Assembly: GCF_054482525.1 (NCBI RefSeq)
Contig: NZ_CM137006.1
Direction: 5' to 3' (one strand)
Length of the DNA: 64,000 nt
Of this stretch, positions 5,375 to 54,392 are shown piece after piece; positions within the stretch are counted from its first letter, which is position 1; every line of letters begins with the position of its first letter. Made by a program: the position numbers and the translations under genes. The notes beneath the pieces are model-generated. The model was not told the origin of the DNA. It ran no database searches and worked only from the letters and a program-made list of their open reading frames with translations.

Positions 5375-6532
5375 TTATTGTCCTGCGAGTTGCTGAAGGG
5401 CTGTGATGACGCGGTCGGCATCGGCGGTGGTCATATCCGGGAACAGCGGCAACGAACAGATGCGTTCGCTATTCCATTCGGTATTCGGTAACGACAGCGT
5501 GGGAAAACGCTCGCGATAATATTTTTGTGTGTGAGCGGCGCGGAAATGTAACCCGGTACCAATGCCTCTTTCTTTTAACGCTTCCATCAACGCATCGCGA
5601 CTGATACCACAACGTTGTTCATCGACACGAATAATAAACAGATGCCAGGCGTGAACGTGCGGCCAGGCGGGAAGGCTTAATGGCTGAAAGGGGAGAGCTG
5701 CCAGTGCTTGCTGATATTGCTGGGCAATTTCGCGCCGACGGGTGTTGAGGTGCTCTAATTTGGCTAACTGGGTCAGGGCAATCGCGGCGTTAATATCGGT
5801 CAGATTATACTTATAGCCCGGCGTTAAGACTTCAGCTTGCGGTGCACGGCCCCAGGTTTGTCTGTCATAGGCATCGACACCCAGACCGTGAAATTTTAGC
5901 ATCCGTAGCTGGCGGGCAAGGTTTTCATTATCAGTAACAATCAGGCCACCTTCCGCACAGGTAATATTTTTGATGGCGTGAAACGAAAAAATAGCGGTAC
6001 CTTTTGCGCCAATATGTCGGCCTTTGTAATACGTACCGACGGCATGGGCAGCATCTTCGATAACTGCGATGCCGTAACGTTCGCCAATGGCGCGAATGGC
6101 GTCAATATCTGCTGGCGCACCGGCATAATGCACCGGAATGATGGCTTTAGTGCGTGGCGTAATGGCTGACTCGATCGCTTCAGGCGTGACCATCAGCGTA
6201 TCGCGGTCGACATCCACCATTACCGGCGTTGCACCCAACAAGGAGATCATATTGAGGGTTGAAACCCAGGTCAGGGAAGGCGTAATCACTTCATCGCCCT
6301 TGCCAATTTCCAACGCCATTAGCGTGATATGCATTCCGGCGGTGGCTGAACTGACCGCGATGGCATGCTGATTTCCCGTCAACTGGCAAAAGGCTTGTTC
6401 AAGCGCCTGATTCTTCGGACCGGTTGTGATCCAACCGGATTCGAGAACCTCTTTAACTGCAGCGAGTTCCTCCACGCCCATTGCTGGTCGCGAAAAAGGC
6501 AAAAATTCTGACATTGCTTTTCCTTCCGCCAT
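5375..6532 (-). CDS. arnB: UDP-4-amino-4-deoxy-L-arabinose aminotransferase ArnB
   Basis: ORF 5375..6547 contains [28 protein letters not shown]...; start chosen at MAEGK, upstream in-frame start at 6547 also possible. Confidence 0.85.
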
Positions 6533-6613
6533 TGAATACCTGTCCACTTATATTTGCTATAAAGAGTGTTGTGTATATTTTGCCATTTGGAGCAAAATTT
6601 TAAGGATAGAATA

Positions 6614-6629
6614 TTAACTTAACCTTAAG
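6614..6629 (-). promoter_or_regulatory. Putative PmrA/BasR box upstream of arnB (CTTAAG-N5-GTTAAT on minus strand)
   Basis: Direct-repeat hexamers with 5-nt spacer read on the arnB strand about 80-100 nt upstream of the arnB start; matches the known PmrA half-site pattern. Confidence 0.45.
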
Positions 6630-6821
6630 AAACTAATATTAGACGTAAATATTGAAATTTTTATATTTTTTCTTATTTAGGCTTTGCATTTGGCAAAATT
6701 TTGAGGCATTTTGCCGGCATCGCAGGATTTTTAATATTACACCAACTGCTAATTATCGCCAGAAATGTCGCTCAATTTCACGGTAATTGTCTGGTTGCGC
6801 TTGTCTATAGGTGGAGTTTAC

Positions 6822-7424
6822 GTGTTAGCTTTTTGCCGCTCTTCGTTGAAGTCAAAAAAATATTTCATCATTTTACTGGCGCTCGCTGCAATTGCCGGAC
6901 TGGGTACTCATGCCGCCTGGAGTAGTAATGGTTTGCCACGTATCGACAATAAAACACTGGCCAGACTGGCACAGCAGCACACGGTTGTCGTTTTGTTTCG
7001 CCATGCTGAACGTTGCGATCGTTCAACCAATCAATGCTTGTCAGATAAAACAGGTATTACGGTCAAAGGTACCCAGGATGCCCGTGAACTGGGCAACGCT
7101 TTTAGCGCTGATATCCCTGATTTCGATCTTTATTCCAGTAATACCGTCCGGACCATTCAGTCGGCGACCTGGTTTTCAGCGGGTAAAAAGCTGACGGTAG
7201 ATAAACGACTTCTTCAATGCGGTAATGAGATTTATAGTGCAATTAAGGACTTACAAAGCAAAGCACCTGATAAAAATATCGTTATTTTTACCCATAATCA
7301 TTGCCTGACATATATTGCTAAAGATAAGCGTGATGCGACATTTAAACCTGATTATCTGGATGGTTTAGTCATGCATGTGGAAAAAGGCAAAGTTTATCTG
7401 GATGGGGAATTCGTTAACCACTAA
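6822..7424 (+). CDS. ais: Lipopolysaccharide core heptose(II)-phosphate phosphatase Ais
   Basis: GTG at 6822 gives (M)[25 protein letters not shown]..., 200 codons; in frame with the longer track ORF 6765..7424. Confidence 0.85.
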
Positions 7425-7462: not shown

Positions 7463-7888
7463 TTACAGAAGACCTTTCAAACGTAACGTTTTTCGGGTGG
7501 CGACATTCAAATCATAATGCACCAGATCTTCAGGTTTTACCCACGCGTAGTCCTGAAACTCTTCGTTTATTTTCACTTCTCGGTTGGCAGAAACGCAGTC
7601 AAAAATCAGGTAAATCATATAAATCTCTTCCTTGCGACCATCTGCATACGTCTTGGTGCGAATATCATCGCTGAAGGTCCACGGCGTGATTTCTGTCAAA
7701 AGCAGCTGTTCTCCCAGTTCTTCGCGAATTTCGCGGCGTAGTGCCTCTTCAATTCGTTCGCCAGGCTCCACGCCGCCACCCGAAAGCGCCCATTGACCGG
7801 GGAAAACGCCGCGATCGTCGGCCATTTTACACAGCAAATAAGCACCATCATTTTGAATCAAAGGGCATACAATAGTCCGTTGTCGCAC
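7463..7888 (-). CDS. nudI: Nucleoside triphosphatase NudI (Nudix hydrolase)
   Basis: ORF 7463..7984 contains (V/M)[59 protein letters not shown] (Nudix box); start placed at GTG 7888 to give 141 aa. Confidence 0.8.
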
Positions 7889-8166
7889 GGGGATATTCCT
7901 TATAAATAAAAAGAAACCATGAGAATACGGTAACTCAGAAATATGTGAAAGTGACAGTAATCTCTTTTGCGATGATAACTGCACTTATTATTATTTTTGT
8001 GTGTATCGATAAAGTGTGTTTATTTTTTCGGCGTTTAATTATTTAAGAAGTATTTAGTTACAATAAGTGACTAGATCCCTTTTTTCGCTCATTGAATCCT
8101 CTGTGCCAGGCAGTACAATCCCGCAGCTTTGGGAATTTTGATTTATTGCTTGTGGGAGAGGGGAAA

Positions 8167-8709
8167 ATGAAAAAAATTGCGCTAGCAGGTCTGGCCGGAA
8201 TGCTGTTGGTTTCTGCATCGGTCAATGCAATGAGCATCAGCGGCCAGGCGGGTAAAGAATACACCAATATTGGTGTCGGTTTTGGGACTGAATCAACGGG
8301 CCTGGCGTTAAGCGGTAACTGGACACATAACGACGACGACGGTGACGTCGCGGGCGTGGGGCTGGGGTTGAATCTACCTCTCGGGCCGTTAATGGCGACC
8401 GTTGGCGGAAAAGGCGTTTACACCAACCCGAATTACGGCGATGAAGGTTATGCCGCAGCGGTAGGAGGTGGTTTGCAGTGGAAAATTGGCAACAGCTTCC
8501 GTTTGTTTGGCGAGTATTACTACTCTCCGGATTCACTCTCCAGCGGTATTCAAAGTTATGAGGAAGCGAATGCTGGCGCGCGTTACACCATTATGCGTCC
8601 AGTCAGTATTGAGGCGGGTTATCGCTACCTGAATCTGTCGGGTAAAGACGGTAACCGCGACAACGCAGTGGCTGACGGCCCGTATGTTGGGGTTAACGCC
8701 AGTTTCTGA
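8167..8709 (+). CDS. yfaZ: Outer-membrane protein YfaZ
   Basis: ATG at 8167 gives MKKIALAGLAGMLLVSASVNA (signal peptide) and a beta-barrel-like body ending ...GVNASF. Confidence 0.85.
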   Translation: MKKIALAGLAGMLLVSASVNAMSISGQAGKEYTNIGVGFGTESTGLALSGNWTHNDDDGDVAGVGLGLNLPLGPLMATVGGKGVYTNPNYGDEGYAAAVGGGLQWKIGNSFRLFGEYYYSPDSLSSGIQSYEEANAGARYTIMRPVSIEAGYRYLNLSGKDGNRDNAVADGPYVGVNASF

Positions 8710-10017: not shown

Positions 10018-10492
10018 AACCCCGTCCTTCAGGGCGGGGATATAAGGCGCGGTTTTCCACCTGACCAGGTGTTTGCTGTTGTTCAATGTATTGGCGGATG
10101 ACGGATATTGGCGCACCTCCGCAGCTACTGGCAAAATAGCCAGGACTCCACAAAACGCCTTTGTAGTAATACCTGACAGCAATATCTGGTCGATCTCGTC
10201 GCAGAAACCTATTCGATATGCCTTTGAGGCTGTTTACCAGACTGAATATCGCCAGTTTTGGAGGATAGTTAATTAACAAATGGACGTGATCTGGTTCGCC
10301 ATCCATTTCAATCAGTTCAGCTTCAAAATCAGCACATACATTTGAAAAGTAAGTGCGTAGTTTTTCTGTCGCGTCATGGTCAAAAATCTGGCGTCGGTAT
10401 TTGGTGACAAAGACCCGGTGAACATGCATCAGGAAAACACAATGCCTTCCACGCCGGATATCGGTTTCTTTTTTCACAGACCAAAGTATCAT
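9887..10492 (-). CDS. tnpA: IS200/IS605 Y1 (HUH) transposase TnpA, ORF extended past the element end
   Basis: Translation has the HUH motif (DHVHLLINYPPK) and catalytic-Tyr helix (VIRQYIEQQ); the ORF continues about 50 codons further, through the left-end hairpin and antisense to the yfaY 3' end. Confidence 0.75.
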   Translation of the reverse strand: MILWSVKKETDIRRGRHCVFLMHVHRVFVTKYRRQIFDHDATEKLRTYFSNVCADFEAELIEMDGEPDHVHLLINYPPKLAIFSLVNSLKGISNRFLRRDRPDIAVRYYYKGVLWSPGYFASSCGGAPISVIRQYIEQQQTPGQVENRALYPRPEGRGFTAHWIRSWTQQPQSSHAHWQCPGRLTNGAAYSVPSLRTLPDG

Positions 10493-11751
10493 TTGGCCTG
10501 TGAAACGACTACAGGCATTTAAATTCCAGTTAAGACCCGGTGGTCAACAGGAGCGTGAAATGAGGCGCTTCGCAGGCGCATGTCGTTTCGTTTTCAATCG
10601 TGCTCTGGCACGTCAGAATGAGAATCATGAGGCCGGTAATAAATACATCCCTTACGGGAAAATGGCTTCCTGGCTGGTTGAGTGGAAAAACGCCACTGAA
10701 ACGCAATGGCTTAAAGATGCCCCCTCACAGCCATTGCAACAGTCACTGAAAGACCTTGAGCGGGCTTACAAAAACTTCTTCCAGAATCGGGCTGCTTTTC
10801 CCCGATTCAAAAAGCGGGGACAGAATGATGCATTCCGCTACCCGCAGGGCGTTAAGCTCGATCAGGAAAACAGCCGTATTTTTCTGCCGAAACTTGGCTG
10901 GATGCGCTACCGGAACAGCCGTCAGGTCACGGGTGTTGTAAAAAATGTCACTGTCAGCCAGTCCTGCGGTAAGTGGTACATCAGTATTCAGACAGAAAGT
11001 GAAGTATCAACTCCGGATCACCCTTCAGCATCAATGGTCGGGCTGGATGCTGGCGTGGCTAAACTCGCCACGCTGTCAGATGGCACAGTCTTTGAGCCTG
11101 TAAACAGTTTTCAGAAAAACCAGAAGACGCTGGCGAGACTTCAGCGACAGTTAAGCCGCAAGGTCAAATTCAGCAACAACTGGCAGAAGCAGAAACGCAA
11201 AATACAGCGACTGCATTCCTGTATCGCAAATATCCGCAGGGACTACCTTCACAAAGTCACAACGACCGTCAGCAAAAACCACGCAATGATAGTCATTGAG
11301 GATTTGAAGGTCAGCAACATGTCAAAGTCAGCAGCGGGTACGGTCAGCCAGCCGGGGCGCAATGTCCGGGCAAAATCAGGTTTAAACCGTTCGATACTGG
11401 ATCAGGGCTGGTATGAAATGCGCCGCCAGCTTGAGTACAAGCAGCTCTGGCGTGGCGGTCAGGTGCTTGCTGTTCCGCCAGCGTACACAAGCCAGCGTTG
11501 CACGTGCTGTGGTCATACAGCGAAAGAAAATCGCCTGTCACAAAGTCAATTCAGATGCCAGGTATGTGGATATACAGCGAACGCCGATGTAAATGGCGCT
11601 CGTAACATTTTAGCGGCGGGGCACGCCGTTCTTGCCTGTGGAGGGATGGTGCAGTCAGGCCGCTCGTTGAAGCAGGAACCCACCGAAATGATTCAGGCGA
11701 CAGCCTGAACGTAGCAGGGATCCACGTTCTTCAGGGCGTGGAGGATGTCAA
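10001..11751 (+). mobile_element. IS200/IS605-family insertion sequence (divergent tnpA + tnpB); boundaries approximate (about +/-20 bp)
   Basis: Y1 transposase and TnpB ORFs bracketed by two similar subterminal hairpins on the same strand: ccccgtccttcagggcgggg (10020..10039) and ccacgttcttcagggcgtgg (11722..11741); rhmT homology resumes about 10 nt after the second hairpin. Confidence 0.8.
10500..11708 (+). CDS. tnpB: TnpB (IS605 OrfB family; RNA-guided RuvC-like endonuclease)
   Basis: 402-aa ORF with GTG start; RuvC-I (VGLDAGV), RuvC-II (IVIEDLKV), zinc finger CTCCGH...CQVCGY and RuvC-III (DVNGARNI) motifs all present. Confidence 0.85.
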
Positions 11752-49887: not shown

Positions 49888-52560
49888 CTACAGCAAGCTC
49901 TTGACATAACTGTCAATGTCGCTGATGTATTTTTCTATTCCTGGAACATCCTTCTCACGAATCAGATGTTCCAGCGTTTCACATAACTGCTTGCCGGGTA
50001 CCAGATTTAGCATGGCAAATACGCCTTTAAGACGATGAGCCGTTTGGGCTAACGCAGCAAAGTCACTGGTTGCTGCTTCAGTATACAGCCTCTTAACATC
50101 ATCCGGTACTGTGTCTACAAAGAGCGCATAATAGCCGCTGGCATGGAGTTGCGCATTTTCATCTCCGCCCAGAGGCGATTCTGTCACCTCTTCCTGCGCC
50201 AGTTGCACTTCAATTAATTGTAAGACCGCTTCCTGCATAGCGTTGCTCATATTGAAGTTGACGCACAATTGACCAGGCCCAATTTCCCGTACGCCAGACT
50301 CATCATCGCTTAAAAGCAAGCCAGAGGCAGTAAGATTAGACGGATTATCCGTTAAAAAGATATCATAATCTTGACTAATTAATCTTTCATCGGGTGTGAT
50401 ACAGGTTGCACCCCAATTTTCTAACTGGCGAGTGACAATATTCCGAATTTCTGCCGAAGTAACATCCACCATTACGCAGACATCATCCAGTAATCGCTCT
50501 TCTTCCTCTTCAACTTCCGGGTCAGCTGCGAGCATTTTGATATGCACAGAGTAGCGTGTACCAAGCCCATCCCGCGTTTTGATGTTTAAATGACCGCCCA
50601 GTTTACGCGCCAGTTGATCGCTCAGCCAGAATGCCAGCGGGTCCGCCTTGCCATAGCGATCGTTTTGGGTCTGGTTGATAAACGGGAAGTGCAAATTATC
50701 CATTTCATGAATGCTTACGCCTTCTCCAGTGTCCAGAATGCGGAACGTCAGGCGGTCTTCGGAGGACTCATCCTGATCAACCTCAAGGGTGATTTTTCCC
50801 AATTGCGTTGAGGTCACGGCATATTGTATCAGTAACAGCAAAATACGTCGTAAGGCATCGCGATCGCCGCGGCGCATATCGTGTGCTTTCAGATGATTGT
50901 TAATCAGCAGTTGCAGACCTTTACGCTTGATGGCAGGCAACACTGAAGGCACAACTTCATCAATCAAATCCTGCACGTAGAACAGCACCGTCTCACTTTT
51001 CCAGCTATCGTCCGCAAGCATGTTCGCTAACTGTATTTCATCGACCAGCCGCACCAGCACATCAGCCTGATTCGCCAGTTGTTTGCTTTCCGGGGCGTTG
51101 AGTTTAGCCGCGCTCTCCGCCAGGGACTGTGCGGGTTCTTTCAGCGCATCGCCAATGTTTTTCATAAAGGTCATCCGCCCCTGCTGGTTTTTCTCATACA
51201 GACGCTGCGCCTGCTTGAGTTTCTTGTTTACCAGCACTTCGCGATCCTGATCGCGAATAATGAAAATTTGTGTGCGCGGCGCGACCTGGCTGCGGAACAT
51301 GCGGATCTCATACAGCTCGTTATTAATCGTCGCCTGAATAATCCCCTGATGCTGTTCCGCCATGGTGGTGATGTTTTGCAGATTCAAATGCGGCAGCAAA
51401 TGATCGGCAATTTTGTTACTTATGACAGTGCGGTTCGATTCCTGATCGTGAACCAGCAGGCCGAGCGGCAGCAGTGAGACTATCTCTTCATTGATTGCCC
51501 GTAAAATGCGCAATTCGTTATTGACCGCCGTGTTGGGTAGACTTTCTGTACTACGACTGGAGAAATGGCGAAATGTGGTATAGCCAAATAACGCCAGCGC
51601 CAGCAAACCGATGTTCAGCAGCAGTGGCAGCAGAATGTTTTGCAACGTATCCAGCAATAAGGTGCCATAAGGAACCTGCCAGACCAGTCGCATATCGGTA
51701 GAGTTGAGTGCCGAGGAGATTTCAATCTTCGTACTGTTAAAGTGGATACTGACGCTATCCGTCCCTTCTTTCTCATTATCATTGTCTCCCGTTGCCGTCG
51801 CGTCTGGCTCAAGGCGGAAACTGTCCAGCGGCATACCCGGTGGGATCAAATCATTAATCGGCAGATCAAAAGCCACGACCGTTGCCAGATGTCCCGGCTG
51901 GTTGAACGTGGTACGCAAGGTAAAGTAATGACCGTTCTGCCAGGCCAGGCGGCGCATGTTAGAAAAGCTTTCGCGTTCATCGAGGGCGTTGGCCTGTCGC
52001 AACATCTCTGCACGACGTGAATCAACAATGTCGCTGACGGTCGATTCTTTAAATCCGGAGGTGAGATCTTTGAGGGGCAGGGTTGAGATCAGCACCAGAC
52101 TGTTATCCTGACCATTCAGGTAATACATCGACCACGGTACATTTTCTGCGCCCCACAATGTGTCCAGATAGGTGGACATCCGTTGAGTCATCTCAAGCGT
52201 TGAGTTGTCGTGAGAGCCAAAGATTAACGCTTCCGTTTTGCGGCGCGGTTTTTCCAGATAGTAGACATCCTGTTTCAGGCGCGTCTCTTGTAAACCTTCG
52301 CCGGAGGAGGGGGAGGTCGTCGCGGCAATGTTGTCGTAGATCTGCCAGGTCACGTAACGCCAGGTATCGACACGCTTTTGGATAGCGTGGGTAATGTCGA
52401 CAATCTGGTAACTTTTATCTTTCAGCCAGGCGTTAACGGCGCTTTGTACCATTACACCCATCGTCACCAGTAACACAATGATCAACAGTAAAAAGAAGCG
52501 GGTAATGCTCCCCGGTAGGAGTGAAAAGCGGGTCGTGGCCGTTGTCTCTTTCTGACGCAT
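49888..52560 (-). CDS. rcsD: Phosphotransfer intermediate RcsD
   Basis: 890-aa ORF beginning MRQKETTATTRFSLLPGSITRFFLLLIIVLLV... with C-terminal HPt region. Confidence 0.9.
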   Translation of the reverse strand: MRQKETTATTRFSLLPGSITRFFLLLIIVLLVTMGVMVQSAVNAWLKDKSYQIVDITHAIQKRVDTWRYVTWQIYDNIAATTSPSSGEGLQETRLKQDVYYLEKPRRKTEALIFGSHDNSTLEMTQRMSTYLDTLWGAENVPWSMYYLNGQDNSLVLISTLPLKDLTSGFKESTVSDIVDSRRAEMLRQANALDERESFSNMRRLAWQNGHYFTLRTTFNQPGHLATVVAFDLPINDLIPPGMPLDSFRLEPDATATGDNDNEKEGTDSVSIHFNSTKIEISSALNSTDMRLVWQVPYGTLLLDTLQNILLPLLLNIGLLALALFGYTTFRHFSSRSTESLPNTAVNNELRILRAINEEIVSLLPLGLLVHDQESNRTVISNKIADHLLPHLNLQNITTMAEQHQGIIQATINNELYEIRMFRSQVAPRTQIFIIRDQDREVLVNKKLKQAQRLYEKNQQGRMTFMKNIGDALKEPAQSLAESAAKLNAPESKQLANQADVLVRLVDEIQLANMLADDSWKSETVLFYVQDLIDEVVPSVLPAIKRKGLQLLINNHLKAHDMRRGDRDALRRILLLLIQYAVTSTQLGKITLEVDQDESSEDRLTFRILDTGEGVSIHEMDNLHFPFINQTQNDRYGKADPLAFWLSDQLARKLGGHLNIKTRDGLGTRYSVHIKMLAADPEVEEEEERLLDDVCVMVDVTSAEIRNIVTRQLENWGATCITPDERLISQDYDIFLTDNPSNLTASGLLLSDDESGVREIGPGQLCVNFNMSNAMQEAVLQLIEVQLAQEEVTESPLGGDENAQLHASGYYALFVDTVPDDVKRLYTEAATSDFAALAQTAHRLKGVFAMLNLVPGKQLCETLEHLIREKDVPGIEKYISDIDSYVKSLL

Positions 52561-52871: not shown

Positions 52872-52964
52872 AAAAAAAACCGGATGCGAGGCATCCGGTT
52901 GAAATAGGGGTAAACAGACATTCAGAAATGAATGACGGTAATAAATAAAGTTAATGATGATAGC
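52872..52964 (-). ncRNA. micF: MicF antisense sRNA (represses ompF translation)
   Basis: Minus strand reads GCTATCATCATTAACTTTATTTATTACCGTCATTCATTTCTGAATGTCTGTTTACCCCTATTTCAACCGGATGCCTCGCATCCGGTTTTTTTT, matching MicF including its terminator hairpin and U-run; divergent from ompC. Confidence 0.9.

Positions 52965-54392
<1,428 letters not shown>

Follow-up and report, generated by a model that had tools for sequence, protein, structure and literature searches.

A conserved PmrA (BasR) box between arnB and ais of Escherichia coli that probably serves both divergent genes

The DNA analysed here, referred to throughout as the window, is a stretch of 64,000 nucleotides whose segment 6400–6950 is E. 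coli chromosome, 100% identical to strain PCN033 and found in 5,418 of 5,426 complete E. coli genomes. RefSeq annotates the matching PCN033 sequence with arnB, the first gene of arnBCADTEF, at 5375–6514 on the minus strand. On the plus strand at 6822–7424 lies ais (pmrG), for a lipopolysaccharide core heptose(II)-phosphate phosphatase with a GTG start, as given by the RefSeq annotation and by homologues. The region between the two genes, 6515–6821, is 307 nt long. The products of the arn operon attach aminoarabinose to lipid A, and in E. coli the operon is the chief chromosomal basis of polymyxin and colistin tolerance; its promoter, which depends on PmrA, is textbook knowledge. In PCN033 and most gene calls arnB starts at the ATG at 6514 (379 residues), 5' of which is the Shine-Dalgarno sequence AAGGA, while the K-12 RefSeq entry and certain Salmonella calls begin at an ATG farther upstream in the same frame, at 6532 in the window, giving a protein six codons longer (385 residues, MAEGK...). 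The open reading frame extends further still, to a GTG at 6547. An earlier note on this DNA had taken 6548–6821 as the divergent region; the interval is indeed intergenic, but its left edge was counted from the GTG-started frame and not from the annotated arnB start at 6514. Rfam returned zero known RNA families in 6400–6950 at E-values up to 1. Elsewhere in the window, downstream of yfaY at ~10067–10500 and beyond (7668–8551 of locus L001), a truncated IS200/IS605 tnpA pseudogene stands beside a gene for a TnpB/InsQ RNA-guided endonuclease.

Within the intergenic region, on the minus strand at 6613–6629, there is a 17-bp direct repeat, CTTAAGGTTAAGTTAAT (CTTAAG-GTTAA-GTTAAT), with half-site 1 at 6629–6624 and half-site 2 at 6618–6613. 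It is oriented towards arnB and stands 98 nt from the arnB ATG and 192 nt from the ais start. PmrA boxes are defined as two XTTAAY hexamers in direct repeat, 5 nt apart (PMC10570014, PMC3973317), and the consensus from verified Salmonella boxes has CTTAAG as its first half and XTTAAT as its second with a 5-nt spacer (quoted in PMC3973317). The repeat has this two-hexamer form and spacing, and it agrees with the Salmonella-derived consensus at 12 of 12 specified positions. By analogy with orthologous promoters and from published work, it would be the site for a dimer of phosphorylated PmrA (BasR). CTTAAG being palindromic, the plus strand offers CTTAAGAAACTAATATT as a further candidate PmrA box facing ais; it was rejected, since other species do not conserve its second half-site. 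No PhoP box with two or fewer mismatches was found in the E. coli arnB/ais region, and the PhoP box has been described as absent from the arnB promoter of both E. coli and Salmonella.

The exact box sequence occurs once in the 64-kb window, and allowing one mismatch adds a second match, at 53022–53038, against 0.29 expected. The loose pattern YTTAAK-N5-BTTAAK is likewise found once, but since 13% of whole-window shuffles contain at least one match to it, the window count by itself is weak evidence, and by this measure the motif might be a chance match in AT-rich intergenic DNA. The local probability is far smaller. When the region 6515–6821 (307 nt) was dinucleotide-shuffled 20,000 times and scored on either strand, the exact motif appeared in 0.005% of the shuffles, CTTAAG-N5-NTTAAT in 0.11% (a chance of ~0.001) and YTTAAK-N5-NTTAAK in 2%. 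The box columns are invariant in a 13-species alignment (A1), the spacing to the −10 hexamer described below is fixed in ~80 species, and K-12 does not differ from the window in the box or in either core promoter. By these conservation data the chance reading is effectively refuted, and we give it almost no probability. The minus-strand CTTAAG-N5-GTTAAT repeat proposed in the earlier note is thus confirmed by exact match, fit to the consensus and local chance; the place given for it, about 6614–6629, was right except for one base.

The one-mismatch match at 53022–53038 (CTTAAGAATAAGTTATT, plus strand) lies in the rcsD-micF-ompC regulatory region; on our reading rcsD occupies 49888–52560 and ompC 53298–54392, with the micF start near 52964 on the minus strand. 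This regulatory region is under OmpR, a regulator of PmrA's family, and the match is probably due to chance or a related site.

Across the Enterobacterales we gathered 80 arnB loci, which provided 85 distinct PmrA-type boxes upstream of arnB. TAnnnT is found exactly 10 nt past the box in 68 of the 85, as against 0–7 at any other offset from 0 to 21. The E. coli representative is the predicted arnB −10 hexamer TAAAAT at 6597–6602 (minus strand), separated from the box by the 10 nt ATTCTATCCT and with its T and A invariant in the 13-species alignment. The promoter scan detected no TTGACA-like −35 on the arnB side, where the box, oriented to the gene and ~10 nt upstream of the −10, occupies the −35 place. 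The offset conserved in 68 of 85 boxes is strong evolutionary evidence that the box and TAAAAT form the arnB promoter. The claim that the box is correctly placed for the arn operon promoter therefore holds, both from its orientation and −10 spacing and from the layout of the Klebsiella pneumoniae pbgP promoter (PMC10570014). The motif, its orientation and its conserved spacing can be read directly on the arnB side; if binding and initiation proceed as at orthologous promoters and in published work, two DNA-binding domains would lie head-to-tail on CTTAAG and GTTAAT, replacing the −35 10 nt upstream of TAAAAT, and sigma-70 RNA polymerase would then initiate the arnBCADTEF transcript near 6588–6593.

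The predicted start zone, 6583–6593 on the minus strand with the start itself at about 6588–6593, is derived from the −10 together with the K. pneumoniae pbgP numbering, in which the PmrA box ends near −21 (PMC10570014). The predicted arnB 5' untranslated region is then 6515–6582, down to the ATG at 6514. Eight nucleotides past the −10 is the sequence CCAAATGG (6590–6583, minus strand), CCAAATG(G), which is kept in Escherichia, several Citrobacter and C. tructae, appears as CTAAATG in Salmonella and is absent from loci without adjacent arnB; it is a candidate for the start site or for the very beginning of the arn transcript. On the other side of the box, between it and the ais core block described below, is a tract of 83% A+T at 6630–6683. 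Relative to the predicted arnB start it lies at ~ −40 to −95, the position of an upstream AT-rich promoter element, and on the ais side it forms the spacer to the box. Its sequence is poorly conserved and its length varies within a narrow range (13-species alignment and 16 ais loci). The pbgP promoter construct used for cryo-EM also contained an 'upstream AT-rich sequence' (PMC10570014). In the start-site table of Kim et al. 2012, compiled under non-inducing conditions, the only start assigned to arnB is 691 nt upstream with 6 reads; it corresponds to window position 7223 on the minus strand, antisense inside ais with TATAAAT just before it, and has no bearing on the PmrA-dependent promoter.

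The closest structural parallel is box1 of K. pneumoniae pbgP, for which a crystal structure (4S05), a cryo-EM activation complex (PMC10570014) and an NMR study (PMC3973317) are available and which PmrA footprints. There the box replaces the −35 and the domains are arranged head-to-tail with the stronger half-site upstream (PMC10570014). The E. coli site shares the two hexamers, the 5-nt spacer, the gene-directed orientation in place of the −35 and the AT-rich DNA upstream, and TAAATT stands 10 nt past the Klebsiella-type box, the spacing seen in E. coli. The Klebsiella box, CTTAATATTATCCTAAG, has a weaker second half-site, and the Klebsiella promoter has in addition a PhoP box and a second start site, whereas E. 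coli is without a PhoP-like box; in none of the Klebsiella-type loci retrieved is ais adjacent, unlike E. coli. The orthologous locus of Salmonella enterica, pbgP (pmrH/arnB)-pmrG (ais), has the same gene pair, box orientation and 10-nt spacing to TAnnnT, and the ais-side block is present as TTGCTT-N17-CATTTT. It differs in the box sequence (CTTAATGTTAATTTAAT in place of CTTAAGGTTAAGTTAAT), in the −10 (TAGGGT against TAAAAT) and in the separation of box and ais block (67 nt against 77 nt). A direct repeat with 11-bp periodicity placed ~10 bp upstream of the −10 and bound by head-to-tail domains, as for PmrA, is also known for another regulator, which differs from PmrA in itself and in its half-site sequence.

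PmrA binding in the Salmonella pbgP-pmrG intergenic region was reportedly described by Wosten and Groisman in 1999. Published E. coli arnB promoter-gfp reporters depend on pmrA, and the PmrA motif upstream of yfbE (arnB) served as a conserved training instance in earlier motif-finding work. Given the orthologous Salmonella site and this prior use, the PmrA box at arnB/ais is already known and its confirmation here adds nothing new. The modest gain is one of anatomy, in that conservation locates the −10 of arnB and a candidate core promoter for ais, and this anatomy argues for one box governing both genes.

For the ais side, 16 ais loci were assembled via Ais homologues, ais adjoining arnB in only 4 of the 80 retrieved arnB loci. 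The 13-species alignment has only three conserved islands between arnB and ais: the arnB −10, the box, and a block of the form TTGCnT-N17-CATTTT. In the window the last consists of the predicted ais −35, TTGCAT, at 6684–6689 on the plus strand, and of conserved GGCATTTT at 6705–6712, which includes CATTTT (6707–6712), the predicted ais −10; the ais start is predicted near 6719. The −35 element is TTGCnT in most of the 16 loci (TTTAAT in E. marmotae), the spacer to CATTTT is 17 nt in 15 of 16, and GCATTTT does not vary in any of the 13 species aligned. Among arnB loci the block is present in 4 of 4 where ais is adjacent and in 0 of 64 where it is not. The predicted ais 5' untranslated region, 6720–6821, is poorly conserved in the alignment except for the Shine-Dalgarno sequence (AGGTGGAG, 6809–6816) and the region of the GTG start at 6822.

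The block scores about 1–5 bits against a sigma-70 matrix in 15 of the 16 loci and negatively in E. marmotae, ranks anywhere from 1 to 49, and in most species is not the top-scoring promoter candidate; with scores so low, its assignment as a promoter rests on conservation, from which we infer that 6684–6712 is a weak, activator-dependent sigma-70 promoter. A stronger candidate on the ais strand of E. coli, TAGACG-16-TATATT at 6640–6667, is conserved in no other genus; it could act in E. coli itself but is unlikely to be the ancestral ais promoter. Given the poor matrix score and the stronger, unconserved candidate, the conserved block could be some other element. A hairpin formed by GGCAAAAT and ATTTTGCC (6691–6715) was considered as a conserved structure and discarded, being missing in Salmonella and several Citrobacter, and sigma-54, sigma-32, sigma-E and sigma-S were set aside for the block by eye on misfits of spacing and key bases.

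In all 16 ais loci the box is present in the same reversed orientation, 56–77 nt from the ais block, and no other PmrA-type box was found upstream of ais in any of them. The distance from box to CATTTT is 77 nt in seven lineages including E. coli, 69 nt in L093, 67 nt in Salmonella and four other loci, 64 nt in C. tructae and 56 nt in L002. The values 77, 67 and 56 step by ~10.5 nt, but the 64- and 69-nt cases make placement of the box on one helix face with respect to the ais promoter only suggestive (Rayleigh test on the five distinct distances, calculated by hand, p ~0.15). With its single box reversed and 77 nt away from the predicted −10, ais cannot be classed with promoters in which the box replaces the −35. 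Moreover, a reversed box centred ~98 nt upstream of the predicted start is unusual for this family of regulators. The box nevertheless accompanies the ais block at a constrained distance independently of arnB. Four ais loci are without adjacent arnB, namely those of Intestinirhabdus alba (pmrD-ais) and of Citrobacter rodentium and the two Citrobacter-like lineages L090 and L091 (menE-ais), and all four keep the box at its usual distance from the ais block. Nothing argues more strongly for a role of the box at ais too than this retention by ais loci without adjacent arnB. In C. tructae (L089, 1–1280) a PMT-family gene (ArnT-like, PF02366), divergent from ais, stands in front of the box and −10 in place of arnB.

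That ais is PmrA-regulated, as the earlier note had stated, agrees with published work, in which ais (pmrG) is treated as activated by PmrA/BasR in Salmonella and is employed as a PmrA-activated gene in E. coli. Co-expression of arn, ais, eptA and basR has been published, ais mRNA falls 2.6-fold in a basSR mutant, and in APEC BasR is reported to shift an ais promoter fragment in a gel-shift assay. It could still be that the box acts for arnB only and that the PmrA dependence of ais is indirect or runs through a different, unrecognised site. The box is oriented to arnB and is the nearer to its start codon, the ais promoter is weak and only predicted, and one table gives BasR as the regulator of arn and none for ais (PMC4145685). 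We regard this as unlikely in view of the reported BasR binding to the ais promoter fragment, of the zero alternative PmrA-type boxes in 16 loci and of the nearly fixed distance between box and ais block in the four loci without adjacent arnB; in addition, one E. coli isolate that recently lost arn, seemingly through IS1 (described below), lost the box as well, unlike the arnB-less ais loci.

As to which of the two divergent promoters the box serves, a matter that had been left for testing, the comparative evidence thus points to both, and one box probably serves the two genes, as a core site for arnB and, putatively, as a reversed upstream site for ais. The explanation as a whole, in which the box is a BasR~P site acting as core activator for arnB and as distal activator for ais, we consider likely. 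At ais, PmrA bound to the same box in reverse, ~98 nt upstream of the predicted start near 6719, would activate TTGCAT-N17-CATTTT remotely, which could come about by contact with the alpha subunit of RNA polymerase, by bending of the DNA or by the lifting of silencing on the spacer of 83% A+T. There is a parallel in the reverse-oriented, distal PhoP boxes of Salmonella pagC, ugtL and mig-14 (PMC2681069), which involve a regulator of the same family and have the opposite orientation and the location farther upstream proposed for ais, although the regulator differs and the ais arrangement is a predicted one.

The same PhoP boxes (PMC2681069), with the A+T content of the spacer, can be cited for a version in which PmrA displaces H-NS-type proteins from the tract 6630–6683 instead of recruiting polymerase. 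The spacer, however, keeps its length in a narrow range though its sequence is unconserved, which anti-silencing does not obviously require, and we hold counter-silencing to be an improbable account of ais activation.

The four arnB-less loci also keep an arnB-type −10 at the 10-nt offset from the box, all near-consensus: TAGAAT, TAATAT, TATATT and TAATAT. The DNA beyond these orphan −10 hexamers is unrelated among the four, being the menE 3' end or terminator region, or running antisense into pmrD. One reading is that the box exerts control in two directions and that ais, too, requires its arnB-facing half, with the reversed box lying near −88 to −98; we think this conceivable but doubtful. 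Were it true, selection would be keeping PmrA-driven divergent initiation, either by way of supercoiling or polymerase coupling or for a short antisense RNA made under PmrA. In a more specific form, ais would be activated through the initiation on the arnB side, negative supercoiling or local polymerase occupancy opening the weak ais promoter. The persistence of the box and a good −10 at 10 nt in front of unrelated transcribed sequence would fit such coupling, as would the GC-rich DNA found right after CATTTT in most species. Supercoiling, on the other hand, does not predict the nearly fixed distance from box to ais block, and the −10 may instead have been kept for an antisense or short RNA with a function of its own, or could reflect only two independent lineages; coupling is itself an inference and we give it little credence. 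Distal activation of ais from the shared box is still the reading that we prefer.

Natural alleles, namely an IS1 insertion that parts the box from ais and the arn-less species with an orphan promoter, could settle how a direct-repeat activator site acts in two directions. In E. coli EC5931 (NZ_CP104592.1), IS1 has inserted directly behind the box, at 6629/6630, and has duplicated a 9-bp target, AACCTTAAG (window 6621–6630). The whole box and the −10 stay on the arnB side, and the ais side is left with the CTTAAG half-site only, IS1 lying between, so that this insertion is a natural allele in which ais is uncoupled from the full box. In E. coli 720632 (NZ_CP025842.1) the order is menE-IS1-ais, seemingly through an IS1-associated deletion; nothing is left of the pmrD-arn operon or of the intergenic region, ais lacks its 5' end (the junction lies within the first ~10 codons), and the box is not kept. 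In Citrobacter amalonaticus the arnB 5' untranslated region contains an insertion of ~200 nt, which places the box 310 nt from the ATG. The insertion carries GTGACTGGGGTGAGCG, which we take to be the core of the ERIC enterobacterial repeat.
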